A stretch of 64,000 bases of DNA from Syntrophobacterales bacterium (GCA_023229795.1 JALNYP010000001.1:5321-69320), one strand, 5' to 3'. Positions 12,606 through 54,683 are shown, counted from the stretch's first letter. The notes: generated by a model not told the origin, from the sequence alone. Numbers and translations: made by a program.

Positions 12606-13016
12606 TTACCAAGCTACCTTATACGGAACCGTGTCTGAAGCATCATAAGTCTCAGGTGAATATTCCAGAACTTGAGAATATTTGTTGGACCTATAGGCAT
12701 GAGCTACTTTCGGGCCTATAGTTAGCCTGTCTCCAGCCTGTACCAGCACCGTCTCCTTGATGCCGCTCTCAAGGTCCTCCAAAAGTAACTCCATTTCTCC
12801 TGACAATATATAGACGTGTTCTGTCTTTCTTTTGTGGTAGTGGTGCCCTCTTTCTTGTCCAGCTTTATCTAAATCCCAATATACCAAGTGCTTGTATGCC
12901 TCATTGGCGCGGTTTAAGATTTGAACCATTTCTCCTTTGTTTGAGAAAATTCTGCGCTCTGAATCGCCATTTCCATCTGTGGGAAGCTTTTCAATGTCAA
13001 CCTTGACTATTAACAT
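12606..13016 (-). CDS. Cupin-fold protein, FdtA/WxcM-like (possible dTDP-4-keto-6-deoxyhexose isomerase/epimerase)
   Basis: ERGHHYHKRKTEHVYILSGEMELLLEDLESG resembles the RGxHxHK...Q..x.L.G....L.D.G core of sugar 3,4-ketoisomerase cupins. A strong GGAGG RBS overlaps the stop of the upstream gene. AT-rich relative to the flanks. Confidence 0.6.
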   Translation of the reverse strand: MLIVKVDIEKLPTDGNGDSERRIFSNKGEMVQILNRANEAYKHLVYWDLDKAGQERGHHYHKRKTEHVYILSGEMELLLEDLESGIKETVLVQAGDRLTIGPKVAHAYRSNKYSQVLEYSPETYDASDTVPYKVAW

Positions 13017-13026
13017 AGCTTTCCTC

Positions 13027-14613
13027 CTATTCGAAAAATGAATTTTCGACTGCTTTAGACGACCCACAGCTATGAACCAAGCTGAGAACTGCTGCCGCTA
13101 GTGCCAATGGAACATAGTCCTTAATACCAGCTTTTATCTCCTCCGCTCTTTTATTCAGAGAATGCCTTTCTTTTGCTAATTTCTCCCTGCCAACTTCTCT
13201 CAAGAACCTAACAAAATCAGATGGCGTAAAGGGGATAGCTATGAACTTCTCCGATTCAAAAGAATCCTCAATACAACCTAATATATGTCGATAGCTTCGC
13301 TTGATCCTAACTTCACCAACTAGTCCGACTTCAAAAAAATGTGTCTCTCTTACTAAGGCTAAAAATACAATATCAGCCTCACTTACTTCTAATCCGGTTT
13401 CTTGTTTAATTTCACGAATGGCTGCGGCGAAAAATGGATTTGGAATAGTAGATGATGTATCCGGCTGCATATTAACCATCCCAGCCGAACCTGCTTGCCA
13501 ACTCTGCCAACAGTGCATAACCTTGCTTTGATTACGTTTTTGGATGACTAGACGTTCTGTCCCATCAGGTTCTTGTGTAATAATATTGATTGTAACAGTC
13601 AGAGGATTTGCTAAAAGAGAATCACTAAAGTTCGTAACAGATTTTTTTTCTACTTCTATGAGACCACTTCTTTTAATATTTTCTGTGAGAGATGATTCAA
13701 GTGCATGGTTAGTAGCTAAAAAAGTATAATAATCAGTAGATTGAAGCCTTAATTCTAATCCGCGGAAACCTTCTGTATCGTCACGCATAGGTTTAAAGTC
13801 TGTCAAACGTGCAAGCCGGCCATTATATAAGACTTGCGCTTTGTCCTTAGCAATCTTGATCTTCTCTTCCAGGACCTTATTGCATAACTGGCGAAGTTCC
13901 GAAGGTAAGCTTTTTAAAGTGTAGGAGGGGCGAGGCTTCCATCTATGGGTTATCATTCCTAATTTCCCATTATGATATTCATATAAGCCATCTCCCTCCA
14001 GTATAACAATAGGGATTTTTAATCTATCAAAAAAGTATGGAGTTATTGCTATTAATTCTTTGTTAATTGGAGTGGTTTTGATAGGGGAAACAATAGCTAT
14101 CGGGGCTATAGAAAATGCGCCTGCTAAATGACAACAATGAATAACCCCTTGCCATGTTGTCTCTATCCAAATGGGGATTGATAAATCAGAAGTGTGTACC
14201 TGGACTTCAAATTCGATCGTTAGCGCTATTTCCTCTTTATTGTTCTTCGTATTTGGGAGTCCACCTTCGAAATTATAGGTAAGGTATTTATCTCGTTTTC
14301 CTTCCGATTCGCGAATAGTTTTTTTAGCACTTTTAAGACTTGCCTTCCTGCCTCCACTTAATCCAAACAAGGATACACCAAAAGAACTTTCAACTTGCTT
14401 TTCTGAGGCAAGATTAGACCAACCTGAAAGCTGAGGGTTTTTAATAGTGAATTTGTTTGGGTCAAAGACAATAGATATCTTGAAGCGCCTTCCATAGTGG
14501 GTCAATCGCCTAAAACCCCGAGGAGAAGCAAAGGCAATAGAGATTGTTAATACAATATTGCCTTTAGAATCCTGAGATGCTTTTGTGAAGAATTGAATAT
14601 TGTTTGAATTCAT
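13027..14613 (-). CDS. Orphan 528-aa protein: unknown N-terminal domain plus C-terminal Nudix-like fold with a degenerate Nudix box
   Basis: Long uninterrupted ORF in AT-rich DNA. The C-terminal half contains ...FFAAAIREIKQETGLEV..., which matches REUxEExGU with E->Q. The upstream Glu of the box is missing. I recognise no family for residues 1-230. Confidence 0.7.
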   Translation of the reverse strand: MNSNNIQFFTKASQDSKGNIVLTISIAFASPRGFRRLTHYGRRFKISIVFDPNKFTIKNPQLSGWSNLASEKQVESSFGVSLFGLSGGRKASLKSAKKTIRESEGKRDKYLTYNFEGGLPNTKNNKEEIALTIEFEVQVHTSDLSIPIWIETTWQGVIHCCHLAGAFSIAPIAIVSPIKTTPINKELIAITPYFFDRLKIPIVILEGDGLYEYHNGKLGMITHRWKPRPSYTLKSLPSELRQLCNKVLEEKIKIAKDKAQVLYNGRLARLTDFKPMRDDTEGFRGLELRLQSTDYYTFLATNHALESSLTENIKRSGLIEVEKKSVTNFSDSLLANPLTVTINIITQEPDGTERLVIQKRNQSKVMHCWQSWQAGSAGMVNMQPDTSSTIPNPFFAAAIREIKQETGLEVSEADIVFLALVRETHFFEVGLVGEVRIKRSYRHILGCIEDSFESEKFIAIPFTPSDFVRFLREVGREKLAKERHSLNKRAEEIKAGIKDYVPLALAAAVLSLVHSCGSSKAVENSFFE

Positions 14614-14858
14614 AATTATAGGTTGAGTGACATAGGTTCCTATGAAAAGATATTTTCCGCCTTATAACGTTATATTTTATTATTACATAGAATAGCTCAT
14701 AGAACTGTCATACTTTGGGGGGGTATCTCAGAGAGGGGATTTGAATTTCCGTTAATATAGCAAACCCCCATAATATTTTAGCCGCTTCCCTGCCTATGCC
14801 CCCCCTCAAGGGAATGAATAAAGGCGAGCACATTTTATTAGTACTCGCGAGAAACGAT

Positions 14859-15356
14859 CTAAGTAAGCCGGAAGGGAGAATCGGGGTCGTTCTCAAACCG
14901 GATTTCGTCCACGGGTTCCCGGCGACCGGGGCCCCGGTAGAGGCGATTGGCGAAATTACAGACCAGGCCGGGGTAACCGCTTTCATTCTTATAGCCGTGC
15001 ACCACCCCGGGAGGCACGATGATGATCCCGGGGCAGGCCTCGCCCAAGAGGAATTCCTGCCGGACCCCGTGGGTGGGACTGCCGGGCCGATTATCCCACA
15101 GGACCACGCGGAAGGTCCCCGGTCCGGGAAAGCAGAAGAGATCGGTCTGATCGCGATGGGCATGGGGTCCCCGGCCCAACCCCGGTTCGGTTACCGAGAT
15201 ATATGCCATGGCCGGGAAATGCTCAGGGGCCAGCTCATCCTGCCGGAAAATTTCGGCCAGCCAGCCGCGCTGATCGGCGAACTTGGCCAGGGCTCGGCAC
15301 AAGACCCCGGCGATTTTGACCTCCGGATTCGTTTCTGGGTTATTCACCAAATGCAC
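14859..15356 (-). CDS. dTDP-4-dehydrorhamnose 3,5-epimerase family protein (short RmlC-like cupin)
   Basis: FADQRGWLAEIFRQ..., RGPHAHRDQTDLF..., VVLWDNRPGSPTHG..., PPGVVHGY are RmlC-family blocks. Confidence 0.75.
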   Translation of the reverse strand: MHLVNNPETNPEVKIAGVLCRALAKFADQRGWLAEIFRQDELAPEHFPAMAYISVTEPGLGRGPHAHRDQTDLFCFPGPGTFRVVLWDNRPGSPTHGVRQEFLLGEACPGIIIVPPGVVHGYKNESGYPGLVCNFANRLYRGPGRREPVDEIRFENDPDSPFRLT

Positions 15357-39725: not shown

Positions 39726-39833
39726 AAAAACCAAAAATTAGGGGCCTTAAGTTGATTGCTGAGGGATAGACTGCTTACTGCTCACTAATTGGGTGCCCTG
39801 GGCGCACCCGGAATCAACCCACGAGAGTTAACC

Positions 39834-40883
39834 ATGGCTGAAATCAAGGTTCCCCTGGTAGAGCAAGTCCGCGCCGCGGGCTGAGCTTCGAAAATACCTC
39901 CGGGGGTCCTGGAGGAAGTGGTGCAAAGCCTGCCCCGGCAGAAGCACCCGGATCTGTTGGTGGGCCTGGAGGCTCCCGACGACGCCGGAGTATTTCGTCT
40001 GAGCCCCGAGTTGGCGTTGATCCAGACGGTGGATTTCTTTACGCCCATCGTCAACGATCCCTATGCCTTCGGGGCCATTGCCGCGGCCAACGCCCTGTCC
40101 GACATCTACGCCATGGGGGGCAGACCCCTGACGGCCCTGAGCATCGCCTGCTTTCCCTTAAAGACCATGCCGATAGATGATTTCAAGGCCATTTTAAGGG
40201 GCGGGATGGACAAGCTCCATGAGGCCGGGGCCTTGCTGCTGGGCGGCCACAGCGTCGAGGACCCGGAACTGAAATTCGGCCTGGCAGTCACCGGCGTCAT
40301 CCATCCGGATAAGATCCTCACCAAGGGCGGGGCCCAGGTGGGCGACCTGCTCATCCTCACCAAGCCCCTGGGGACCGGGATCATCGCCACGGCCTTGAAG
40401 GGCCGCCTGGCCGCGCCCGAAGCGGAGGCGGCCATGATCGAGGTGATGAGCGGGCTCAACCGGGCCGCGGCCGAAAGCCTGGAAGGGCTCAAGGTCCATG
40501 CGGCCACCGACATCACCGGCTTCGGCCTGCTGGGCCACGGGCTGGAGATGGCCCAGGCCGGCCAGGTGGAGTTCACGATCTATGCCTCCCGGACGCCGGC
40601 CCTGCCCTGGGCCCGGGACTACGCCGACATGGGGCTGGTGCCCGCGGGCAGCCACGCCAACCGCAACTTCTGCGCCCAACACCTGGCCATCGATCCCCGG
40701 GTGGGCGCCCTTGACGTGGACCTGCTGAGCGACGCGCAGACCTCCGGGGGCTTGCTCATCGCCATCGCCCCGGACAATGCTCCCGAACTCATGGGGCGCC
40801 TTAAGGCGCGGGACGTGCGCGGCGCCGCCATCATCGGGGAGGTGACCGGGGCCGGGGTGGGGCGGATCAGGGTAGTGCCGTAG
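39834..40883 (+). CDS. selD: Selenide, water dikinase (selenophosphate synthetase), selenocysteine-containing form with in-frame UGA at 39882-39884
   Basis: The ORF track starts at 39918, but the frame is open back to the ATG at 39834 apart from one TGA: MAEIKVPLVEQVRAAG-U-ASKIPPGVLEEVVQSLP... This aligns with the SelD N-terminal GAG(C/U)GCKI.P..L motif, placing Sec at the catalytic Cys position. The remainder is a typical AIR-synthase-fold SelD. Confidence 0.85.
39897..39915 (+). promoter_or_regulatory. Candidate SECIS hairpin downstream of the selD UGA
   Basis: CCUCCGG-GGGUC-CUGGAGG stem-loop starting 13 nt after the UGA, with G/U in the apical loop as in bacterial SECIS elements. Confidence 0.55.
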
Positions 40884-41021
40884 GGCGAGTTGGAGGAATG
40901 GTGCGCAGTGCGCACCCTACGTTAAGATTGCACTTGGCAATAATTTCCGTTCCCAAGTGCAACTTGGGAACGAGGGGAAAACTGCTATTTTCATAATAAA
41001 ACGCATCGGAGAATTGCCTTC

Positions 41022-43794: not shown

Positions 43795-44271
43795 GTGAGG
43801 GAAGAAAACCGGGGCTACCGCGCCTTGATCCTGGGCCTGGCCACCTGGGCCGGGGTCGGGTTCCTGCCCTGGATGCCCGGGACCTGGGGGACCCTGGCGG
43901 CCCTGCCGCTGTGGTACCATCTCGCCCGGCTGGGCCCCTGGGGTTACGGCCTGGGGCTGGCGGCCGTTTTAGTCCTGGGGCTGTGGGCCGCGGGCCCGGC
44001 CCAACGGTTTTTGGGCCGCACCGACCACCCGTCCATCGTGGTGGACGAAGTCGCGGGGCTCCTAATCACCCTGGCCGGCGTGCCGGCGACCTGGGAGAAT
44101 GCGGCCCTGGGTTTTGTCATCTTTCGGACCCTGGACATCCTGAAACCCGGGCCCATCCGCTGGTTCGGCGAAGGTACAGGCGCCCTGGAAGTCATGGCCG
44201 ACGACGTGGCCGCGGGGGTGATCGGGCGGGTGATTATAGAAGTGGTGATGGTTTTTTGGAGTAGGGGTTAA
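43795..44271 (+). CDS. pgpA: Phosphatidylglycerophosphatase A
   Basis: GVGFLPWMPGTWGTLAALPL..., DHPSIVVDEVAG..., FRTLDILKP, DDVAAGV. Confidence 0.88.
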   Translation: MREENRGYRALILGLATWAGVGFLPWMPGTWGTLAALPLWYHLARLGPWGYGLGLAAVLVLGLWAAGPAQRFLGRTDHPSIVVDEVAGLLITLAGVPATWENAALGFVIFRTLDILKPGPIRWFGEGTGALEVMADDVAAGVIGRVIIEVVMVFWSRG

Positions 44272-44312
44272 AGAGGAAGAGCCCCCCGGTTTGACTTCAC
44301 AGGAAGTGGACC

Positions 44313-45344
44313 ATGCGACTAGATTTCCACTTTTATACGATCTATGTCCTGTCAAGAGTTGTGGGTTTCAGTCCGGATAACGCCTATGTCATAGCTTATG
44401 CTTCACAATATACGGATGATGAAGCTAGTGAGAATCCCATATTGTTCGAAAACGGCGGTGAGCTTGAACCAATCATTACGGCTCATCGGATTTTTGACCC
44501 GGGGGCAGTCACAGAGAGAATCTGTAAGAAGGTGTGGATTCCATTCCATTTTGTGCCTGGGAATTTAGGAATAGGTGATGAGCAAATGCTCACCAGAGCC
44601 AATAGTTCATTGACGCAAGCAATGATTAATGAATTGTTGAGTTACGATTTATTACCTTATAGCCGCCATCTTTTAGGCATTATGCTGCATGCCTATGCAG
44701 ATACCTGGTCACATCAAAATTTCATGGGCATGGTTAATGGAATGAATGAAGCTTCACAGCTGAGGGTGAATGGAGAAGATATTTGGCTCTATAACCTCGC
44801 ACCCGCCCTCGGCCATGCGCAAACCGGGGCTACGCCGGATGAACCGAGGCTGGAATGGGAATATCTTGATTATAAGGGTGAGCTTCATCGGGTGGCCAAT
44901 TATAATCGAGCTATAGAGGCGGCGCAAAATTGTCATAAGGTGCTATCTCAGTTCATTGATAAATTTGAGGATGACTTCCGTGATTCACAGTTCATTCCCT
45001 GGGAGCAGATTGCAGGGAAGATCATGGAGTTATTTCGAACACCAACCGATTTAGCGGGGTCCGTAACTGCTTGGGGAGAGGCCATTACTGCTAGTGAATT
45101 TGGATTTCAATCGCAAGGCAAAGATATCAATTTAATCTATGATGCCAGTGAATGGTTCAATGTGGCAATTAAATCTGAATCGATTCTAAATCAAGAATCA
45201 GGTCAATTCATAGAATGTTTTTTTAAAAATGATAATTATGAATCAAGTGACCTGAAGTATTTTAATGAGGCCGCGGGTTTTTATTGGTCTACTTTATTTA
45301 ATAATAACGCGGAGAGATTTGGTTTGAATAGTGCTTTGATTTAA
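44313..45344 (+). CDS. Hypothetical protein with His/Asp motifs reminiscent of the zinc phospholipase C / P1-nuclease fold (AT-rich insertion)
   Basis: 343-aa uninterrupted ORF in AT-rich DNA. Motifs FHFYTIYV...AYASQYTDD, IPFHFVPG, LHAYADTWSHQNF, LGHAQTGATPDEP. The family assignment is tentative. Confidence 0.65.
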   Translation: MRLDFHFYTIYVLSRVVGFSPDNAYVIAYASQYTDDEASENPILFENGGELEPIITAHRIFDPGAVTERICKKVWIPFHFVPGNLGIGDEQMLTRANSSLTQAMINELLSYDLLPYSRHLLGIMLHAYADTWSHQNFMGMVNGMNEASQLRVNGEDIWLYNLAPALGHAQTGATPDEPRLEWEYLDYKGELHRVANYNRAIEAAQNCHKVLSQFIDKFEDDFRDSQFIPWEQIAGKIMELFRTPTDLAGSVTAWGEAITASEFGFQSQGKDINLIYDASEWFNVAIKSESILNQESGQFIECFFKNDNYESSDLKYFNEAAGFYWSTLFNNNAERFGLNSALI

Positions 45345-45501
45345 CAAGGCCTATTAATATTTGCAAAGGGTCGGCAGGTTATTGACCGAACTGGATGAAG
45401 ATTTATCCTTGGAATGGTTATCGAGATAATTGAAAAGGCGGATTTTCGCCCACTCTTAATGGGAAAATGGTGCTCAGTGCGCACCCTACATAGATGCTCT
45501 T

Positions 45502-46740
45502 ATGATGCAAGGTGAGATCATTGCCACCGGCACGGAGTTGATTACCGGCCAGGTGGCTGACTGTAACACCCATTATGCCGCCCGGCGGTTGTTCGAGGCC
45601 GGCTTGGAGGTGGCGCGTTTCACCACAGTGGGCGATAAAGGTCCGCTGATCCGGGAAGTCCTGGAGCAGGCCATGAGCCGGTCGCAGTTTATCATTATTA
45701 CCGGCGGCCTGGGGCCCACCGAAGACGATGTCACCCTGCCGGCCGCGGCCCTGGCTCTAGATCGGCGCCTGGTGGTCCATGACGGCCTGTTGGACCGCAT
45801 TAAACGCTGTCTGGGGGCGCGGCAGATCCCCTGGGAGGAGCGCTATGCCGGACTGGCTCTGATCCCGGAAGGCGCGCAGCTTTTGGACCCGGGCGGCATG
45901 GCCTGCGGCTTTGCCGTGAAACATGAGGAAGTCCGCCTCTATTTCCTGCCCGGGGTCCCTCAGGAAATGCGGAGTCTGTTCGACGGCTTCGTGCTTCCCA
46001 ATTTGGTGGCCTGGGCCCAGCCGGAAGAATATTGGGTCCGGCGCACCCTGCGGCTGTTCGGAATTTCCGAAGGCCAGTTGCAGGGAGTAATCTGCCGGCG
46101 GCCGGAGTTTCAGCAGGGCGTGACCGTGGGGTATTACCCCCATTTTCCTGAAACCCACTTGAGTCTGACGCTGCGGGGGAAGGACCGCGCCGTGCTCAAT
46201 GCTAGCCTGGACCGCCTCACGGCTGCTCTGGGCGCAGAGGTGGGCGAAGCGCTGCTGGGGCCGGAGGAAGCCACCCTGGAAGAGCTGGTGGGCCGCCTGC
46301 TCAGGACGGGCGGGCTCACCGTGGCGGTGGCGGAGTCCTGCACCGGCGGCCTCATCGGCGACCGGCTCACCAACGTGCCCGGGTCTTCGGATTATTTTCT
46401 GGGCGGGGTGGTGAGTTACAGCAACGAGGCCAAGCACGATTTGCTGAAGGTGCCGCCGGAGGTCCTGGCCCAAAAGGGGGCGGTGAGCCCGGAGACCGCC
46501 GGGGACATGGCCCGGGGGGTCAGAGAAGTCTTTCATGCCGATATCGGGTTGGCGGTGACGGGTATCGCGGGCCCGAGCGGCGGCAGCCCGGCCAAACCCG
46601 TGGGCACCGTGTACATCGGCCTGGCCGACACCGAAGGCGAAGACGTCTGGCACTATCAGTTTTACGGCAACCGGACGGAGATCAAGACCCTGACGGCCCA
46701 GACCGCGTTGGACCGCCTGCGCCGGAAGTTGAAAACGTAG
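45502..46740 (+). CDS. cinA: CinA: MoCF-binding domain plus nicotinamide-nucleotide amidohydrolase (PncC) domain
   Basis: EIIATGTELITGQVADCNT..., ITGGLGPTEDD, ESCTGGL..., GIAGPSGG. Confidence 0.9.
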   Translation: MMQGEIIATGTELITGQVADCNTHYAARRLFEAGLEVARFTTVGDKGPLIREVLEQAMSRSQFIIITGGLGPTEDDVTLPAAALALDRRLVVHDGLLDRIKRCLGARQIPWEERYAGLALIPEGAQLLDPGGMACGFAVKHEEVRLYFLPGVPQEMRSLFDGFVLPNLVAWAQPEEYWVRRTLRLFGISEGQLQGVICRRPEFQQGVTVGYYPHFPETHLSLTLRGKDRAVLNASLDRLTAALGAEVGEALLGPEEATLEELVGRLLRTGGLTVAVAESCTGGLIGDRLTNVPGSSDYFLGGVVSYSNEAKHDLLKVPPEVLAQKGAVSPETAGDMARGVREVFHADIGLAVTGIAGPSGGSPAKPVGTVYIGLADTEGEDVWHYQFYGNRTEIKTLTAQTALDRLRRKLKT

Positions 46741-46763
46741 GGTGGGCACGGCCCACCACCTCC

Positions 46764-46808
46764 GCTTTCACCTCGTTCCCAAGTGCAACTTGGGAACGAG
46801 GTGAAAGC
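46764..46808. repeat. Perfect 21-bp-stem hairpin (GTTCCCAAGT-GCA-ACTTGGGAAC core family)
   Basis: GCTTTCACCTCGTTCCCAAGT gca ACTTGGGAACGAGGTGAAAGC. The same core occurs at 40949-40973, with variants at 48521-48545 and 48603-48628. Confidence 0.9.
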
Positions 46809-46828
46809 GAACCGCTGAAAGCTCAAAA

Positions 46829-47395
46829 ATGATCCGTGCTTTCCTGGCCATAGAGATGCCTGACAGCTTCCGGACCGGCCTGGCCCTGGTCCAGGGGGAG
46901 CTGAAGCGCAGCCAGGCCGACGTGCGCTGGGTGGCGCCGGGCAATATTCATCTGACGTTGAAGTTCTTCGGGAACGTCCCCGATGACGAGATCGACACCC
47001 TGGCCCTGGCGGCCGGGGAGGTGGCGCAAGAAGAGGAGCCCTTTCAGCTCAAGGCGACCATTGCCGGGGCCTTTCCGTCCCCCAAGGCCCCCCGGGTGGT
47101 GTGGCTGGGGCTGGGCGGCGACGTGGTGCCCCTGAACCGGCTGTATCATAAGCTGGAGAAGGCCTTCGCGGCCCTGGGGTATCTCCCGGAAGGCCGGGCC
47201 TTCCATCCCCACCTCACGCTGGGCCGGGTCAAGTCCCCCATGAACCGGGAGAAGCTGGCCCGGATGCTGGAAAAGATGCCGCCCATGGACTGGCCGCCTT
47301 TCGCGGTGAAGGAGTTGATCCTGTTTCAGAGCGTCTTGTCGCCCCAGGGGTCGAGATATACGCCGTTGAAGGTGATTCCGTTGGGTAAAGTGTAG
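46829..47395 (+). CDS. thpR: RNA 2',3'-cyclic phosphodiesterase (2H family, LigT/ThpR)
   Basis: Two HxTx motifs (HLTLKF and HPHLTLGRV). 188 aa. Confidence 0.88.
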   Translation: MIRAFLAIEMPDSFRTGLALVQGELKRSQADVRWVAPGNIHLTLKFFGNVPDDEIDTLALAAGEVAQEEEPFQLKATIAGAFPSPKAPRVVWLGLGGDVVPLNRLYHKLEKAFAALGYLPEGRAFHPHLTLGRVKSPMNREKLARMLEKMPPMDWPPFAVKELILFQSVLSPQGSRYTPLKVIPLGKV

Positions 47396-47498
47396 GGTGG
47401 CCATTGCCCACCATTTATCTGAGCACCATATTGGCGCCGCCGCGCCGGGGGAAGAAAAGGACTTGACCAAAACCGGCCAATGTATTACATTGTAAGAC

Positions 47499-47720
47499 AT
47501 GAAGACCAACACATTGACCATCAGACTTGACGAGGAGTTGGATAAACTCCTGACCAAGGCGGCGAAGCAAGCGGGAAAGAATCGGAGTGAGATTGCCCGT
47601 GAGGCGTTGCGCCGCCAACTTCGGGTCAGTCAGTTCGAAGCCCTCCGCAGGAAGATTATGCCTTTCGCGGAGGCGCGGGGATATCTCACCGATGAGGACG
47701 TGTTCCAGGAAGTTTCATGA
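47499..47720 (+). CDS. Ribbon-helix-helix (CopG-like) antitoxin
   Basis: LTIRLDEELDKLLTKAAKQAGKNRSEIAREALRRQL. 4-nt overlap with the downstream PIN gene. Confidence 0.8.
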   Translation: MKTNTLTIRLDEELDKLLTKAAKQAGKNRSEIAREALRRQLRVSQFEALRRKIMPFAEARGYLTDEDVFQEVS

Positions 47721-48121
47721 GAGTTCTCCTGGACACCAACGTCATCGTCAGCGCGGTTGCGACCCGGGGGCTGTGCGCCGACGTCTTTCGTGCGGTTCTA
47801 GCAGCACATGAACTAGTCACCTGTCCACAGGTTCTTCAGGAGGTCCGGCGCATCTTGAGTATGAAGTTCGGGGTCCCGGAACCGTTGATCGCGGAATATC
47901 TGGAACTTATCGGGCAAGAAGCCATCGTGGCCGAGCCTGAAGACTTGCCGGACCTCCCCATCCAGGACCGGGATGACGCGCCCATCGTCGCGGCGGCCAT
48001 CGCCGCCCGGGCGCAGGTCCTGGTTACCGGCGATCACGAGCTGCAAGGCCTCAAGAACATCGAGCAACTAAGGATTATTTCCCCGAGGGCGTTCTGGGAA
48101 GAACTAACGGCCCAGGAATAA
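47717..48121 (+). CDS. PIN-domain toxin (type II TA)
   Basis: MRVLLDTNVIVSAV..., DRDDAPIVAAAI..., LVTGD are the acidic PIN residues. Confidence 0.8.
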   Translation: MRVLLDTNVIVSAVATRGLCADVFRAVLAAHELVTCPQVLQEVRRILSMKFGVPEPLIAEYLELIGQEAIVAEPEDLPDLPIQDRDDAPIVAAAIAARAQVLVTGDHELQGLKNIEQLRIISPRAFWEELTAQE

Positions 48122-48195
48122 AGGTTTGGCAGGGTGCGTCTTACGCACCATTGCAGAAGTCTCGGACATGGCGATCGCGTTATGGTGCTTCAAGC

Positions 48196-48380
48196 CGCAC
48201 CTCACCCTGGGCCGGGTGAAATCCCCGATGAACCGGGAGAAACTGGCCCGGATGCTGGAGAAGATGCCGCCGGTGGACTGGCCGCCCTTTGCGGTGAAGC
48301 AGTTGATCCTGTTTCAGAGCGTGTTGTCGCCGCAAGGGTCGAAATATACGCCGTTGAAGGCGATTCCCTTGGGGAGATAA
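48196..48380 (+). pseudogene. Orphan duplicate of the 3' end of thpR
   Basis: It encodes PHLTLGRVKSPMNREKLARMLEKMPPVDWPPFAVKQLILFQSVLSPQGSKYTPLKAIPLGR. By hand alignment it has 19 substitutions over 59 codons relative to 47208-47395, 14 of them synonymous. There is no 5' part of the gene. Confidence 0.85.
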
Positions 48381-48413
48381 TCGAGGCATGGTAGCCGCAG
48401 GCTTTAGAAAATC

Positions 48414-48628
48414 ATAGGGCGGCCCTTGGCCGCCGAAAAGAATTGGCGTGCAGGGCACGCCCTACATGGCTGTTCCGGGCACAGGCTGGAAAGCCTGTGC
48501 TACCAACAGCATTTTTTTCTGGTTCCCAAGCTGGGCTGGGAACCCTATTGAGTGCAGAGCTATGCTTTGCGAAATATTTCGGCCCGTTAGCCAAACTACG
48601 ATTTCCCAAGCAAAGCTTGGGAACGAGG
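48414..48628. repeat. Cluster of at least five REP-like hairpins from three dispersed families
   Basis: TAGGGCGGCCcttGGCCGCC, GGCGTGCagGGCACGCCCTAC, GCACAGGCTggaaAGCCTGTGC, GGTTCCCAgctgggcTGGGAACC and TTCCCAAGCaaaGCTTGGGAA, back to back. Confidence 0.8.
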
Positions 48629-48640
48629 AAAACCGATAAC

Positions 48641-48996
48641 GTGGAATTCCTTAAGACTATAGCAATAATTGTAGGAGTTATGGTTAGCGTAATAGGTATA
48701 ATGGGCGGAATTTTTTCTTTGCCAAATAGTTATAGGCGCTTTAGAAAAGGATTTTATCCACATGGTGAAAAGGGTACAGGTTCTATTGTACTATCCAAAA
48801 AAATAATAAATGAAAGACAGTTTGTAACTTTCCTTGTTATTGAAGATATTTTTCAATTTATTAAAGCATTTCTTCAACCAAAGGAATGGGGAGGGGAATT
48901 TGAATCAATAGAAAAAATTGGAGAATATTATAAAATAGTAATTTCCTATCCGAAAGAAAAAGAATTCAATTTCTATATAACCAAGGGGAACAAAAA

Positions 48997-49000
<4 letters not shown>
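48641..49000 (+). CDS. Small AT-rich membrane-anchored hypothetical protein, stop overlapping the recA start
   Basis: GTG start with a [33 protein letters not shown] (one TM helix) followed by a Lys/Glu-rich domain. The ATGA overlap with recA falls at 48997-49000. Codon composition is unlike the flanks. Confidence 0.5.
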
Positions 49001-50025
<1,025 letters not shown>

Positions 50026-50028
50026 GAC

Positions 50029-52671
50029 ATGACCAGCCGCGAGATCCGGGAGACCTTTTTACGTTTTTTCGCCTCCAAAGGCCACACCAGGGTGACCAGT
50101 TCCTCCTTGGTTCCCGCCGGAGACCCCACCCTGCTGTTTACCAACGCCGGGATGGTGCAATTTAAAAAGGTGTTCCTGGGGGAAGACCCCCGCCCCTATA
50201 CCCGGGCCGCCACCTCCCAGAAGTGCGTCCGGGCCGGCGGCAAACACAACGACCTGGAAAACGTGGGCTTTACCGCCCGCCACCACACCTTCTTTGAGAT
50301 GCTGGGGAATTTTTCCTTCGGCGACTATTTCAAGGAAGGGGTCATCGAGATGGCCTGGGAACTCCTGACCCAACATTATAAACTCCCGGCGGATAAGCTC
50401 TGGGCCACCGTGTTCCATGAAGACGAAGACGCGGCCCGCCTCTGGGAGAAGATCGCCGGGCTGCCGCCGGACCGCATCATCGGCATGGGCGAAAAAGACA
50501 ACTTTTGGGCCATGGGGGACACCGGGCCCTGCGGCCCCTGCTCCGAAATCCTCATTGATCAGGGCGAGAGCATGGCCTGCGGCCCGGAGTGCGGCATCGG
50601 CAAGTGCGAATGCGACCGCTATCTCGAGATCTGGAACCTGGTCTTCATGCAGTATAACCGGACCCCGGACGGCGTCCTGCACCCCCTGCCCAAACCCAGT
50701 ATCGACACGGGTATGGGCCTGGAGCGCCTCTGCGCGGTCATCCAGGGGGTCAAGAGCAATTTCGACTGCGACCTCTTGCGGCCGGTGATCGCGGGGGTCG
50801 AAGAGCTGGCCGGCCAGGCATACGGCGCCAGCGACACGCAGAACGTGCCCTTCCGGGTCATCGCGGATCATTCCCGGGCCACCGCTTTTCTCATTGCCGA
50901 CGGCGTGCTGCCCTCCAACGAGGGCCGGGGCTACGTGCTCAGGCGCATTATGCGCCGGGCCATCCGGTTCGGGCGGCTCCTGAACCTGCCCACCCCGTTT
51001 CTGGCCAGAGTCTGCGACCGGGTGGTGGACCTCATGGGCGAGGTCTATCCCGAACTGCACCAGATGCACCATATCATGGCCCAGGTGGTGACCAGCGAAG
51101 AAGAGCGTTTTGCCGACACCCTGGACCATGGCCTGAAGCTCCTGGGCGATGAGCTGGAGTACCTCAAGCACCACAGCCTGAAGATCCTGCCGGGAGAGGT
51201 GGCCTTCAAGCTCTACGACACCTACGGCTTCCCTCTGGACCTGGTCCAGGACACCCTGCGGGAAGAGGGGCTGGTGCTGGACCTGGAAGGCTTCGAGGCG
51301 AACATGCGGGCCCAGAAGGAGGCCTCCCGGCAGTCCTGGAAAGGCGGGCCGGGGGAAGAGCTGCCCGCGGTCTATCAGGAGCTGGCGGAATGGCCAGCCA
51401 CGCAATTCCTGGGCTATGAGGCCCTGGAGGCCGACAGCACCATCCTGGCCCTCATCGTGGAGGGCGGCCACAACTCTCAGGCCGAAGCCGGGGAGGACGT
51501 GGAGGTCATCACCGGGGCCACGCCGTTTTACGGCGAGTCCGGCGGCCAGGTGGGGGACACGGGGCTGATCTATGGCGACGGCTGGTCCATCCGCATCAGC
51601 GGCACCCAAAAACTGCCCAACGACCTCATGGTGCATGAGGGCAAGGTCGAGGCCGGCACCGTTCACGTCAATGACCCGGCGCACCTGGAAGTGGACGCGG
51701 CCCGGCGCCGCCGCATCATGGCCCACCACACCGCCACCCACCTCCTCCAGGCCGTGTTGCGGCGCCATTTGGGCGACCACGTCAAGCAGTCCGGCTCCCT
51801 GGTGGACCCGGAGCGCCTGCGCTTCGACTTTACCCACTACCAGGCCATCACCCCTGAGGAACTGGAGGCCATCGAACTGGATCTGAACGAGGCCGTGGCC
51901 GCCAACCTGCCGGTACACACGGATAAGATGTCCATGACCGAGGCCCTGGAGCAGGGAGCCACCGCCCTGTTCGAGGAAAAGTACGGCGACGAAGTGCGGG
52001 TGGTGAGCGTCCCCGAGGTCAGCCAGGAACTCTGCGGCGGCACCCATGTGGAGCGCACCGGCGATCTGGGGCTCTGTAAAATCACCACCGAGACCTCTAT
52101 TGCCGCGGGTATCCGCCGCATCGAGGCGGTGTGCGGCGTGGAAGCGGTGAAGCTCACCCAGGACCAGGCCCGGGAACTGGACCAGGCCGCGGGCCTTCTC
52201 AAGGGCGGCCGGGCCGACCTGGTGACCCGGCTGGAAAAGATGCTGGCCAACCAGAAAAAACTGGAAAAAGAAGTGGAGGCCCTCAAGGGCCGCCTGGCTT
52301 CCACCCAGGCCCGAGACCTGGTGGATCAGGTGCGCCAGGTGGAGGGGGTGCAAGTCCTGGCCCTGAAGGTGGACGCCGCGGACCCCAAGAGCCTCCGGGA
52401 CTTTGCGGTGAAATTCCAGGATAAGCTGAAAAGCGGCATCGTGGTCCTGGGCAGCGACGCGGGCGACAAGGCCATGCTCATCGCCCTGGTATCCAAAGAC
52501 CTGACCAAACGCTTCCCTGCCGGGGAGATCATCAAAGCCATCGCCCCTACCATCGGCGGCAGCGGCGGCGGCCGCCCCGATATGGCCCAGGCCGGCGGCC
52601 CGGACAAGGACAAAATCCCTGCTGCTTTGGAGATGGCGTATGAGGTGATTGGTAGGAAGGTCGAGGAATAA
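50029..52671 (+). CDS. alaS: Alanine--tRNA ligase
   Basis: FTNAGMVQFK, KHNDLENVG, editing-domain HTATHLL and the C-terminal DHHA1 GGGRPDMAQAGG. 880 aa. Confidence 0.95.
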   Translation: MTSREIRETFLRFFASKGHTRVTSSSLVPAGDPTLLFTNAGMVQFKKVFLGEDPRPYTRAATSQKCVRAGGKHNDLENVGFTARHHTFFEMLGNFSFGDYFKEGVIEMAWELLTQHYKLPADKLWATVFHEDEDAARLWEKIAGLPPDRIIGMGEKDNFWAMGDTGPCGPCSEILIDQGESMACGPECGIGKCECDRYLEIWNLVFMQYNRTPDGVLHPLPKPSIDTGMGLERLCAVIQGVKSNFDCDLLRPVIAGVEELAGQAYGASDTQNVPFRVIADHSRATAFLIADGVLPSNEGRGYVLRRIMRRAIRFGRLLNLPTPFLARVCDRVVDLMGEVYPELHQMHHIMAQVVTSEEERFADTLDHGLKLLGDELEYLKHHSLKILPGEVAFKLYDTYGFPLDLVQDTLREEGLVLDLEGFEANMRAQKEASRQSWKGGPGEELPAVYQELAEWPATQFLGYEALEADSTILALIVEGGHNSQAEAGEDVEVITGATPFYGESGGQVGDTGLIYGDGWSIRISGTQKLPNDLMVHEGKVEAGTVHVNDPAHLEVDAARRRRIMAHHTATHLLQAVLRRHLGDHVKQSGSLVDPERLRFDFTHYQAITPEELEAIELDLNEAVAANLPVHTDKMSMTEALEQGATALFEEKYGDEVRVVSVPEVSQELCGGTHVERTGDLGLCKITTETSIAAGIRRIEAVCGVEAVKLTQDQARELDQAAGLLKGGRADLVTRLEKMLANQKKLEKEVEALKGRLASTQARDLVDQVRQVEGVQVLALKVDAADPKSLRDFAVKFQDKLKSGIVVLGSDAGDKAMLIALVSKDLTKRFPAGEIIKAIAPTIGGSGGGRPDMAQAGGPDKDKIPAALEMAYEVIGRKVEE

Positions 52672-52710
52672 GAAAATATCGTCAATTTCTCAGCTTAATT
52701 GGAGATGGTT

Positions 52711-52932
52711 ATGCCTAATAAATTTACCGCGGTAATTACCAAAGAAGAAGAATGGTATGTGGCTTATTGCATGGAGTTAGGAGTGGTGAGCCAGGGGAAA
52801 ACCATCGAAGAAGCCCAAGCTAATCTGCGGGAGGCCGTTGAGCTTTACCTCGAAAGCTTTGGAGCAGAAGACCTTCCCAAAACCACCGGAGAAATGATGC
52901 TCTATCCCTTTGAGGTGGCAGTAGGTGGCTAA
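52711..52932 (+). CDS. hicB: HicB-family antitoxin
   Basis: FTAVITKEEEWYVAYCMELGVVSQGKTIEEAQANLREAVELYLE. Overlaps the downstream hicA. Confidence 0.8.
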   Translation: MPNKFTAVITKEEEWYVAYCMELGVVSQGKTIEEAQANLREAVELYLESFGAEDLPKTTGEMMLYPFEVAVGG

Positions 52933-53140
52933 AATTCCTGCCTTATCCGGTGAGAACCTGATTAAGGCTCTAAAGAAAGCAGGATTTCACCAGGTGCGCA
53001 CAAGGGGTAGCCATGTAAGCTTGGAGAATGGCCCTTATCGAACCGTGGTGCCGCTTCACGATGAGCTTTCCCGAGGAACCCTCTTGGCAATTTTGAAGCA
53101 GTGCGGTTTATCAAAGGAAGAGCTTTTAAAGTTACTCTAG
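52925..53140 (+). CDS. hicA: HicA-family mRNA-interferase toxin
   Basis: LSGENLIKALKKAGFHQVRTRGSHVSL...VVPLH.ELSRGTLLAILKQCGLSKEE. GTG start. Confidence 0.8.
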   Translation: MAKIPALSGENLIKALKKAGFHQVRTRGSHVSLENGPYRTVVPLHDELSRGTLLAILKQCGLSKEELLKLL

Positions 53141-53172
53141 ATGACACGGGATTACAAGCTGACCAGAGGCGG

Positions 53173-53271
53173 CGCCCCGACATGGCCCAGGCCGGGGGCC
53201 TGGATAAGGACAAAATCCCCGCTGCCCTGGAGATGGCGTATGAGGTGATCGCTAAGAAGGCGAAGGGGTAA
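53173..53271 (+). pseudogene. Orphan duplicate of the 3' end of alaS
   Basis: It encodes RPDMAQAGGLDKDKIPAALEMAYEVIAKKAKG*, against RPDMAQAGGPDKDKIPAALEMAYEVIGRKVEE* at 52573-52671. The offset is exactly 600 nt and I counted 15 nucleotide differences in 99 nt by hand. Confidence 0.85.
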
Positions 53272-53345
53272 AGATTGGGGGGAGGGGCTAAGGTCGGGAG
53301 CTTTTTAACCCCTCCCACAATCCCGTAAGTAATGTGGGGTGTTCC

Positions 53346-53558
53346 ATGAAAAAGCATAGATTCACCGTATTGATCGAACGGGATGATGATGGTTACTTAG
53401 TGGCCATGGTTCCGGCTCTCAAGAGCTGCTATACGCAAGCGAAGACTATGGAAGAACTCATGCCCCGGATCAAAGAAGTCATAGAACTGTGCTTGCAGGA
53501 AGAAGAACCGGTGATTATGAGTTTTGAGGGAGTTCAGCAGATAGAGATTGTGGCATGA
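53346..53558 (+). CDS. hicB: HicB-family antitoxin (second copy)
   Basis: FTVLIERDDDGYLVAMVPALKSCYTQAKTMEELMPRIKEVIELCLQEE. Confidence 0.75.
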   Translation: MKKHRFTVLIERDDDGYLVAMVPALKSCYTQAKTMEELMPRIKEVIELCLQEEEPVIMSFEGVQQIEIVA

Positions 53559-53790
53559 GCCGTCTGCCACCATCAGTCCTGGCCTGATGGTAAAATTTCT
53601 TCTGGAAATAGGATTTGAGAAGAGCCCCCAACATGGGAGCCATATCTTTTTCCGCCATCCTGATGGCCGCACCGCCACAGTTCCATTCCATAAAGGGGAA
53701 GATTTGGGTCGCGGTTTGACCAGCAAAATTCTCCACGATATAGATGTCTCGCGCGACTTTTTCTTGGCCTGGCTGGCAAAAAATCCATGA
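53555..53790 (+). pseudogene. hicA: HicA-family toxin with an early frameshift
   Basis: The ATG at 53555 overlaps the hicB stop (ATGA) and reads MSRLPPSVLA* (stop 53585). The HicA body (ISPGLMVKFLLEIGFEKSPQHGSHIFFRHPDGRTATVPFH...) is in the -1 frame. One missing base in CCA CCn restores MSRLPPISPGL. Confidence 0.65.
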
Positions 53791-53972
53791 GATGGTGCGA
53801 CCTCTCCTGTGAATACGCCTCTTTTCCCCGGGTCCAGGCCGTGGATGGGGCCGGGTCGTGCCGCAGCTTTGCGGCTCTGTATTGCGCCAAGCTCGGTCGG
53901 CTGGTGCACAAGAACGCCCCGTGTCCCTGCGATGAGAAAGCCGATCTTGGAGACCAGGGGCAGAAGACCTGA
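53787..53972 (+). CDS. Small Cys-rich hypothetical protein
   Basis: MRWCDLSCEYASFPRVQAVDGAGSCRSFAALYCAKLGRLVHKNAPCPC has six Cys. Host-like G+C. The ATG overlaps the hicA-2 stop. No family recognised. Confidence 0.35.
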   Translation: MRWCDLSCEYASFPRVQAVDGAGSCRSFAALYCAKLGRLVHKNAPCPCDEKADLGDQGQKT

Positions 53973-54125
53973 AGGATAGAGGGGCGGGCACAGAGGCCCG
54001 CCCCACCGCTGAAATTGCCATACGGTAGGGTGGGCACCGCCCACCAGATGGCGGGCAATCCCGCCAAAGACACCAAGGCGGGACGCCCGTGCCGCTGGAG
54101 CTGCAAAGAACCGAGGAGGTTCTCA

Positions 54126-54683
54126 ATGACTGGACTCTACATTATCCTGGGCGTGGTGGTGCTCCTGTTAGTCGGGGCGGTGACGATTTACAACCGGCTG
54201 GTGACCAACAAGAATATGGTGGCCGAGGGCTGGAGCGGCATCGACGTGCAGCTCAAGCGGCGGGCTGATCTGATTCCCAATCTCATCGAGGCGGTGAAGG
54301 GCTACATGGGCCACGAACGGGGCGTCCTGGACCAGGTGACCGAGCTTAGGGCGAAGAGCCTCAAGGCCGAGGGCGTGGGCGACAAGGCCAAGGTGGAAGG
54401 GGCCCTGGGCGCGGCGTTGGGTAACCTCTTCGCGGTGGCCGAAAATTATCCCGACCTCAAGGCTTCGGCCAACTTTATCCAGTTGCAGCAGTCCCTGGCC
54501 GACATCGAGGATCAGATCCAGCTATCCCGGCGTTATTACAACGGCGCGGCCCGGAACTTCAATATCCTGATCCAGTCTTTCCCCAGCAATCTGGTGGCGA
54601 ACACCTTCCACTTCACCGCGGTGGAATACTTCGAAATCGAGGCGGCCGCCGACCGGGAAGTGCCCAAGGTGTCCTTTCCTTAA
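54126..54683 (+). CDS. lemA: LemA-family protein
   Basis: N-terminal TM helix then YNRLV...WSGIDVQLKRRADLIPNLIEAVKGY..., ENYPDLKA..., RRYYNGAARNFN. Confidence 0.88.
   Translation: MTGLYIILGVVVLLLVGAVTIYNRLVTNKNMVAEGWSGIDVQLKRRADLIPNLIEAVKGYMGHERGVLDQVTELRAKSLKAEGVGDKAKVEGALGAALGNLFAVAENYPDLKASANFIQLQQSLADIEDQIQLSRRYYNGAARNFNILIQSFPSNLVANTFHFTAVEYFEIEAAADREVPKVSFP

Follow-up and report, generated by a model that had tools for sequence, protein, structure and literature searches.

A core-gene-flanked hotspot of accessory genes around recA in a Syntrophobacterales bacterium

Hotspots of horizontal gene transfer that are flanked by core genes have been described as lacking mobile-element genes and as exchanging their content via recombination in the flanks (Oliveira, Touchon, Cury, Rocha, 2017; PMC5635113). 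Here we describe a new example of this known class, otherwise ordinary in its hotspot biology, within 64,000 nt of DNA from a Syntrophobacterales bacterium (GCA_023229795.1 JALNYP010000001.1:5321-69320; this whole stretch is called the window, positions are counted from its first nucleotide, and features lie on the plus strand unless stated). The region of interest (43795-54125) contains pgpA, cinA, thpR, recA and alaS, a co-oriented run of core genes whose junctions, including the one that follows alaS, hold toxin-antitoxin (TA) pairs and low-G+C genes. It includes two unexplained low-G+C genes fixed in position, one for a DUF6765 protein between pgpA and cinA and one for a 119-aa protein (AT119) upstream of recA, and an integrase-free scar, the duplication of a target gene's 3' end, that recurs in the genome.

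As in the described hotspots (PMC5635113), the flanks are conserved, each interval receives many alternative gene families, turnover is rapid, no mobile-element genes are recognisable and exchange plausibly proceeds through recombination in the flanks. The difference is that several adjacent intervals are found here within a single co-oriented operon, and that DUF6765 and AT119 are old and position-fixed. The locus also resembles the core defence hotspots (cDHS) of Pseudomonas aeruginosa (PMC10250203), since the junctions of relatives carry candidate or known defence genes (HEC-01A/B, TIR and GmrSD), whereas the cargo of the window consists of TA pairs and unassigned genes without a PADLOC match. 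The slots here (1-2.8 kb) are far below the typical size of a defence island.

Cis-mobilizable elements have reportedly been found in streptococci, and from what is generally known of streptococcal integrative and conjugative or mobilizable elements, such cis-mobilizable or decayed elements share with the units at thpR and alaS a direct 3'-end duplication that brackets the cargo, an intact target gene and the lack of an internal integrase. The units described here are different in being small (600 and 988 nt), in having long and diverged repeats (99-186 nt, 85-89% identical) and in being known from sequence alone. They are at most cis-mobilizable-like, because no recombinase was found among the scanned open reading frames (ORFs) of the block.

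The core operon and the turnover of its junctions

The window lies on contig C175 of a metagenome-assembled genome (MAG, here G000) of 4.3 Mb in 231 contigs, a genome of sulfate-reducer type. We searched 31 related genomes, located RecA in 28 of them and retrieved 20 loci (up to 18 kb) for comparison. The core genes of the relatives were mapped by tblastn and junction lengths tabulated from this mapping, while the limits of inserts were set by blastn against G015, the empty-site genome, plus G003 and G016. Gene identities in the window come from Pfam scans and defence families from PADLOC.

An earlier note on this DNA had read the block as an insertion hotspot with at least five small foreign segments. 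The hotspot itself is borne out by three observations, namely a compact core that is order-wide, junctions that, recA-alaS excepted, are variably filled within the genus, and different cargo in near-identical core backgrounds. Fifteen of the relatives' loci, from two families, cover the entire block, and all of them have pgpA-cinA-thpR-recA-alaS in this order and orientation; the other five are truncated by contig ends, and whatever core genes they retain follow the same order. In the sister family the operon is compact (cinA to thpR -2 to 96 nt, pgpA to cinA 17-71 nt), and it is likewise compact in the sister genus. Within the genus, pgpA and cinA are 76-121 nt apart in five genomes, two others have 292 and 537 nt and the window has 1233 nt; the distance from thpR to recA goes from 90 nt (G015) up to 2387 nt, and the alaS-LemA junction measures 1183-2775 nt and is empty in none. 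Of 13 genus genomes, 11 have a recA-alaS gap of 6 nt, the exceptions being G010 with 15 nt and G012 with 45 nt.

The number of alternative contents is large, with at least eight states of the thpR-recA junction and at least nine of the alaS-LemA junction among about 13 genus genomes and metagenome contigs, and about 20 distinct types of cargo overall. The cargo includes a low-G+C 252-aa protein (G015), a TIR protein (TIR_2; similar to ThsB/PDC-S66) together with a HicBA-2 pair (G003), MNT-HEPN (G005 and G016), an amidohydrolase (G011), an AAA_21 and DUF4276 pair that corresponds to HEC-01A/B (G004; PADLOC E 7.5e-191 and 4.3e-79), a second HicBA-like pair (G005 and G006) and a PIN protein fused to a HEPN-like tail (G012). 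G007 has a Y1 transposase between thpR and recA and two small ORFs, DUF4160/DUF2442-like by eye, between pgpA and cinA; in the sister family, G027 carries a GmrSD nuclease of G+C 0.28 between thpR and recA. All the recognised cargo genes are on the operon strand. That turnover outpaces the divergence of the core can be seen from G005 and G011, whose recA and alaS are 95.5% identical, and from G004, nearer still to G011: the three have three different cargoes between alaS and LemA. The full combination of the window was found in no relative, and the sister family is devoid of all the window cassettes.

Pfam scans confirmed every gene named in the earlier note, and the five core genes are present and co-oriented as it had claimed: pgpA (43795-44271; PgpA, E 8e-39; syntenic in all relatives), cinA (45502-46740; CinA, MoCF_biosynth and CinA_KH), thpR, a 2',5' RNA ligase of the LigT family (46829-47395; LigT_PEase; the last ~190 nt belong to an incoming copy, see below), recA (48997-50025; RecA, E 2e-136) and alaS (50029-52671; tRNA-synt_2c; the last ~100 nt are again an incoming copy). 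The right-hand core flank of the alaS-LemA slot within the genus is lemA (54126-54683; LemA, E 2e-58), homology to the relatives beginning at 54125. The note had also considered every junction except recA-alaS to be occupied, which is correct for all but cinA-thpR, whose 88 nt contain two repetitive extragenic palindromic (REP) hairpins only and no gene.

REP sequences that are recognised by REP-associated tyrosine transposases (RAYTs) are headed by the tetranucleotide GTAG. One of the two hairpin types of this genome, REP1 (GTAGGGTGGGCAnnGCCCACC), is found at 46737, 47391 and 54024, with a reversed copy at 45469. In the cinA-thpR junction (46737-46809) a GTAG-headed REP1 hairpin supplies the stop codon of cinA and is accompanied by REP2, a perfect 22-nt palindrome; REP1 also overlaps the stop codon of thpR (47393-47412) and lies upstream of lemA (54024-54046). 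In relatives REP1 abuts the alaS stop and lies a few nt past the hicA1 stop. Hairpins do mark most of the junctions, as had been noted, but they belong to a genome-wide family (REP1 ~131 copies with a loose pattern, REP2 ~43 palindromes) whose members, in every relative, come after the majority of the stop codons in these junctions, and a role as cassette-specific boundaries is ruled out. The features shared with REP/RAYT systems are the GTAG followed by an imperfect GC-rich palindrome, the position after stop codons, the many copies and the Y1_Tnp ORFs in the genome (seven Y1_Tnp matches in G000, plus the Y1_Tnp ORF at thpR-recA in G007). The REPs here differ in not being locus-specific, and the likeness to RAYT systems consists only in the REP form and the presence of Y1_Tnp.

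Predicted TA cassettes between duplicated 3' ends of thpR and alaS

A repeat search verified both of the 3'-end duplications that had been noticed, one of 186 nt at thpR (47200-47385 vs 48188-48373; 89% identical) and one of 99 nt at alaS (52573-52671 vs 53173-53271; 85% identical). Between the two thpR copies lies a predicted RHH-PIN type II TA cassette (47396-48187), with a RHH antitoxin gene (47499-47720; RHH_1, E 4e-9) and a PIN toxin gene (47717-48121; PIN_3, E 2e-16), both above the Pfam cut-off. A promoter scan detected a promoter-like site with a near-palindrome in front of them (47463-47491), and a REP1-like hairpin (48129-48152) follows the PIN gene within the cassette. The antitoxin gene comes first, the two genes overlap by 4 nt (47717-47720), both domains are recognisable and the promoter-like site is in place, all of which is what a VapBC-like type II system would be predicted to show.

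The cassette is followed by a second thpR 3' end and by intergenic hairpins (48188-48464). In this segment the remnant (48188-48373) still has an open frame, and Pfam detected a LigT-like fragment in 48126-48380. The insert delimited by blastn (47390-48187) corresponds to the new thpR end plus RHH-PIN, and 48374-48464 matches the hairpins found after the intact thpR in G015 and G003. Because the sequence beyond the remnant is the native context, the downstream copy is the displaced original and the 3' end attached to the gene is the incoming one. The identity of both copies to the relatives was of no help here, the sequences being too short to decide, and the flanking native intergenic sequence decided the matter.

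The same arrangement is seen at alaS. The HicBA-1 cassette (52672-53167), common to G006, G010, G012 and G016, comprises a HicB-like gene, HicB1 (52699-52932; match below the Pfam cut-off), and HicA1 (52925-53140; HicA_toxin, E 3e-17), and is followed by the displaced native alaS 3' end (remnant 53173-53271) with a native terminator-like hairpin (the whole segment 53168-53332). The blastn insert (52632-53167) is the new alaS end plus HicBA-1, and 53272-53332 matches the sequence after alaS in G015 and G003; because native context follows the remnant, the downstream alaS copy is again the displaced original and the attached end the incoming one. In G000, G006, G010 and G012 the starts of the remnant agree to within ~12 nt, while in G016 the remnant has been lost to a later insertion of REP and MNT-HEPN.

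A second pair, HicBA-2 (53334-53790; Pfam), is 82% identical in nucleotides to that of G003 (span shared in blastn 53346-53784). HicB2 (53334-53558) is intact and HicA2 (53548-53790) has a 1-nt frameshift near 53570, which removes the first 13 codons of a toxin that in G003 has an intact 79-aa form (MSRLPTISPSLMVKF...). The broken toxin of the earlier note is in this sense real, but an internal ATG at 53587 leaves nearly the whole HicA domain (Pfam positions 4-57 of 58). The two HicA_toxin matches score 62.9 and 57.2 bits (cut-off 27), their partners reach HicB_lk_antitox/UPF0150 below the cut-off only, and in both pairs the antitoxin gene comes first. The ATG of the next gene, orf61 (53787-53972; 61 aa, Cys-rich), overlaps the HicA2 stop. 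It is kept in G016 (L039; 88% nt, 79% aa), where the ATG overlaps the stop of HEPN, a different upstream toxin gene; orf61 and the region upstream of lemA, from 53787 onward, are common to the window and G016. Neither Pfam nor PADLOC gave a match for orf61, and PADLOC gave zero matches for the five window proteins scanned (DUF6765, AT119, orf61, PIN and HicA1).

As to the age of the cassettes, RHH-PIN is common to G005, G011, G001, G006 and G012, with 88-90% nucleotide identity to the window copy and 87.6-94% among those five. Compared with the copies of five other species, the RHH and PIN genes are 87-94% identical and recA is in the same range (87-91%). Over all 15 pairs of the six genomes the identity of RHH-PIN parallels that of recA and alaS (89.9 vs 88.5, 92.3 vs 95.5 and 94.0 vs 91.2, for instance). 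In the tree of recA and alaS the cassette is carried by the deep branches G000 and G001 as well as by members of the crown, and is missing from the sisters of carriers (G010 beside G012, G007 beside G006). The thpR remnants are nested across genomes, with lengths of 186, 121, ~83, 62 and 0 nt and a shared 3' end point. The nested thpR remnants, the shared start of the alaS remnant, the co-divergence and the distribution in the tree together fit a single old insertion of each cassette, followed by erosion and loss, and do not fit recent acquisition.

In one contig (G012, L048; 356-1483 of the thpR-recA junction) the PIN ORF continues for 240 aa of low-G+C sequence, which has a weak RiboL-PSP HEPN-like match (E 4e-4); either a toxin fusion or the loss of a stop codon could explain this.

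Two low-G+C genes with fixed positions

The mean G+C of G000 is 0.587 and that of the flanks of the block ~0.62-0.68, with troughs at 44.2-45.5 kb (0.33-0.50), 48.55-49.0 kb (0.29-0.37) and 52.6-53.8 kb (0.46-0.55). An assembly artefact is ruled out as the source of the low-G+C segments, the same junctions being present in independent contigs from JGI, ENA, Logan and NCBI.

The first trough corresponds to a slot (44282-45498) with the DUF6765 gene (44313-45344) and the reverse-oriented REP1 (45469-45488); homology to G015 ends at 44281 and restarts at 45499, with 1217 nt in place of 77 nt. The 343-aa product had been regarded as an orphan and turned out to be a member of Pfam DUF6765 (E 3e-70), with 146 homologues at E <= 1e-10. 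The four homologues that we traced (80, 79, 65 and 61% identity; L083, L084, L086 and L087) are all between pgpA and cinA of the same operon, on independent contigs, and have a G+C of 0.40-0.44 vs 0.62-0.68 in the flanking genes. Their identity to the window copy parallels that of Cca, PgpA, CinA and ThpR. The gene is absent from seven genus genomes with the pgpA-cinA junction assembled. A comparison with PDB sequences gave nothing meaningful (best E 0.44), PADLOC had no match and a literature search returned no paper naming the family. Judging from its sequence contexts, the DUF6765 gene is a position-fixed and patchily retained member of the operon.

The second trough falls in a slot (48465-48986) that has no homology to G015 and contains three further REP hairpins and the AT119 gene. 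This gene (48641-49000; 119 aa, GTG start, N-terminal transmembrane helix) overlaps with its stop the ATG of recA as ATGA. It is no orphan either, and has conserved homologues with a fixed location directly upstream of recA. Six were found, 59-86% identical and three of them also of 119 aa, and the five traced to contigs (L051-L055) are all upstream of recA. In L052-L055 the homologue adjoins recA with the same ATGA overlap as in the window; in L051, a MAG of another genus with a RecA 78% identical, the homologue is placed after thpR and 270 nt ahead of recA. Over the six contexts, window included, recA is the next gene downstream in 6/6 and its start is overlapped in 5/6, and the G+C of the gene is 0.29-0.30 in every one, the host RecA being 78-90% identical to that of the window. 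Two neighbouring findings concern very low-G+C membrane-protein ORFs without family match: L055 has two, of 195 and 147 aa, just upstream of its AT119 homologue, and G001 (L035) has a 147-aa multi-transmembrane ORF (G+C 0.28) that adjoins recA upstream in the thpR-recA junction.

The AT119 family is small. An exhaustive profile search yielded only 29 clusters; among 83 genomes of the order two had a member, 400 genomes sampled from the phylum added none, and a profile of the close homologues had as its sole match among genome contigs the MAG already known. Pfam and PADLOC assigned no family. Distant members (20-27% identity) come from two settings: in a prophage-like region of Gimesia maris the neighbours are HTH_17 and a phage capsid gene, and in a wastewater contig they are a ParB-methyltransferase and a large AAA/SMC ATPase. 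AlphaFold2 gave a predicted local distance difference test score (pLDDT) of 55.8 with 7 sequences and 71.3 with 11; the latter model has a long N-terminal (transmembrane) helix followed by a small beta-beta-alpha-beta-beta domain. Foldseek found zero matches to this model in PDB and BFVD at E <= 0.001, the best ones, the GspL/XcpY periplasmic domain (E 0.06) and PilO-like folds, being non-significant.

The most economical reading of these relationships is that AT119 may be a phage-derived membrane protein captured at recA. That this undescribed family (~29 clusters with distant prophage or mobile members), being coupled to recA in this bacterial family, might also work alongside RecA or the SOS response, or influence either, is a doubtful suggestion. 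If true, AT119 could be a membrane effector triggered by infection or damage and co-expressed with recA, or a modulator of RecA in an order without detected RecX. The recX gene, whose absence between recA and alaS had been remarked upon, was indeed not found, but neither was it in any of 31 genomes of the order (the control genomes gave matches), so this is a trait of the lineage and not a local deletion. LexA is present in G000, on contig C112.

The RecA of the window has a peculiarity of its own. At the region encoded by 49420-49434 all 20 compared relatives read D(V/A/I/M)(A/V/I)V(V/I)DSVAAL, and in the window the Walker B Asp is replaced by His and a conserved Val by Gly. This could be an error of the MAG consensus or a real inactivating change.

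Origin of the slots

We consider most probable (roughly 0.7) that an ancient compact operon acquired in this genus long-lived slots that are repeatedly refilled with accessory genes, through old insertions that were followed by losses. RHH-PIN and HicBA-1 would have entered long ago by integration at the 3' ends of thpR and alaS. The incoming DNA would have brought its own copy of the target 3' end, which would be why the target gene stayed intact, and the native 3' end with the native downstream hairpins would have been pushed downstream as a remnant. Either site-specific recombination or one homologous crossover could integrate a circular element with a copy of the target 3' end in this manner, and the recombinase may have been lost later or have acted in trans. 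From then on the cassettes would have been passed down together with the flanking genes, would have disappeared from several lineages and would have had further cargo added over them. DUF6765 and AT119 would be older, position-fixed accessory genes of low G+C, patchy over at least two genera, and the junctions from thpR/PIN to recA and from alaS to LemA would keep turning over with genes of TA and defence type, most likely by homologous recombination in the flanking core genes. Chance co-orientation of some 20 types of cargo is unlikely, and their common strand is probably best explained by selection against breaking the transcription of the operon.

Similar duplications of a 3' end flanking small inserts (0.5-2.2 kb downstream) were found on four other contigs of G000. 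At C143:1779-2398 the repeat has 137 nt (83%) and a single ORF, DUF2442-like by eye, between the copies; at C78:42423-44726 it has 66 nt (91%), comes from the end of a dxs-like gene (by eye) and is followed by 2.2 kb at G+C 0.34 before the second copy; the other two are at C15:54150-55411 and C139:3858-5685. This recurrence suggests a general mode of insertion in the organism.

The view of the earlier note, that five recent and compositionally foreign segments accumulated around recA in G000, could appeal to the G+C troughs, to the narrow spread of the AT119 family in the order, to the fact that neither DUF6765 nor AT119 was seen at the operon in the 20 relatives' loci compared, and to the uniqueness of the full combination. 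Conservation across distant relatives, which had been proposed as the sign that the insertions are not recent, was found in the synteny comparison for single cassettes and not for the arrangement as a whole. Since RHH-PIN diverges together with recA and alaS, the start of the HicBA-1 remnant is shared by four genomes, and DUF6765 and AT119 occupy the same junctions in other species or genera, each cassette being at the same site with a divergence equal to that of the core genes, recent arrival is very unlikely. Low G+C persists even where RecA is only 78% identical, and composition therefore does not date the insertion. The opposite extreme, an ancestral longer operon that already had DUF6765, AT119 and the TA pairs and underwent differential loss without any hotspot, would agree with the co-divergence of DUF6765, AT119 and RHH-PIN with their flanks and with the ease of precise deletion between direct repeats. 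It is, however, highly improbable: the thpR and alaS remnants prove at least two insertion events, eight to nine or more unrelated sets of cargo are found at the same two junctions even in near-identical core backgrounds, and the sister family is compact but for one unrelated GmrSD insert, located at the same junction.

Another possibility is that the TA cassettes are still active mobile units devoid of integrase, in which a circle made of the target 3' end and the cargo loops out between the direct repeats and then inserts again, either through one RecA-dependent crossover of Campbell type or with the help of a recombinase in trans, a behaviour that would be similar to that of streptococcal cis-mobilizable elements. 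Direct repeats of the target 3' end do bracket the cargo with no recombinase between them, the same architecture is repeated on the four other contigs, once with a DUF2442-type ORF as sole cargo, and the thpR remnant of G000 looks younger than its cassette. Present-day activity is nevertheless unlikely, given that the divergence of the cassettes equals that of the core, that the remnants are nested erosions of one event, and that a second copy of either cassette was unseen in the other stretches examined.

Several points weigh against the old, repeatedly refilled slots that we favour. Indels are only about two times as dense in the block as in its flanks: of the nine indels of at least 250 nt with respect to G015, four fall in the block, which makes up 10.3 of 35 syntenic kb (29%; binomial p ~0.26 by our own estimate), and what speaks for a hotspot is how many alternative states two junctions have, not density in G000. 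The mechanism of entry is read from scars alone; each plus-strand ORF of 43.8-54.1 kb considered coding has been accounted for, and no integrase or transposase was found among those scanned (the minus-strand ORFs, judged to be shadows of GC-rich genes, were left unscanned). Vertical descent with loss and transfer together with the flanks cannot be separated with these data. The thpR remnant of G000, with its open frame, is 82-90% identical to the intact thpR ends of other genomes and at least as near to them as the intact end of the window itself, from which it differs in 15 synonymous and 8 non-synonymous codons, and such good preservation would be unusual if the scar has the age of the genus; gene conversion, a re-insertion at a later time or selective constraint on the remnant could account for it. 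Finally, the genomes are MAGs, and G000 itself, in its 231 contigs, has an estimated contamination of 7.4%.

A consequence of more general interest is that low G+C is no guide to the date of an insertion, as genes at 0.30 and 0.42 persist in an operon at 0.63-0.68 and diverge with their neighbours. Small TA cassettes can, it seems, enter at the very ends of housekeeping or essential genes and leave these intact by means of a replacement 3' end. The junctions that flank recA-alaS could be a source of new TA or defence genes in the poorly studied MAGs of Thermodesulfobacteriota (a label carried by one of the related MAGs), and DUF6765 and the recA-coupled 119-aa membrane protein are two families worth experiment.

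Outside the block, a difference in gene content of normal G+C is found just upstream, where G015, G005, G011 and G001 lack the selD region (39918-40883; the difference spans 39729-40992) and have only 73-278 nt at the syntenic position. A further low-G+C stretch (0.40) is located at 13000-15000 of the window.

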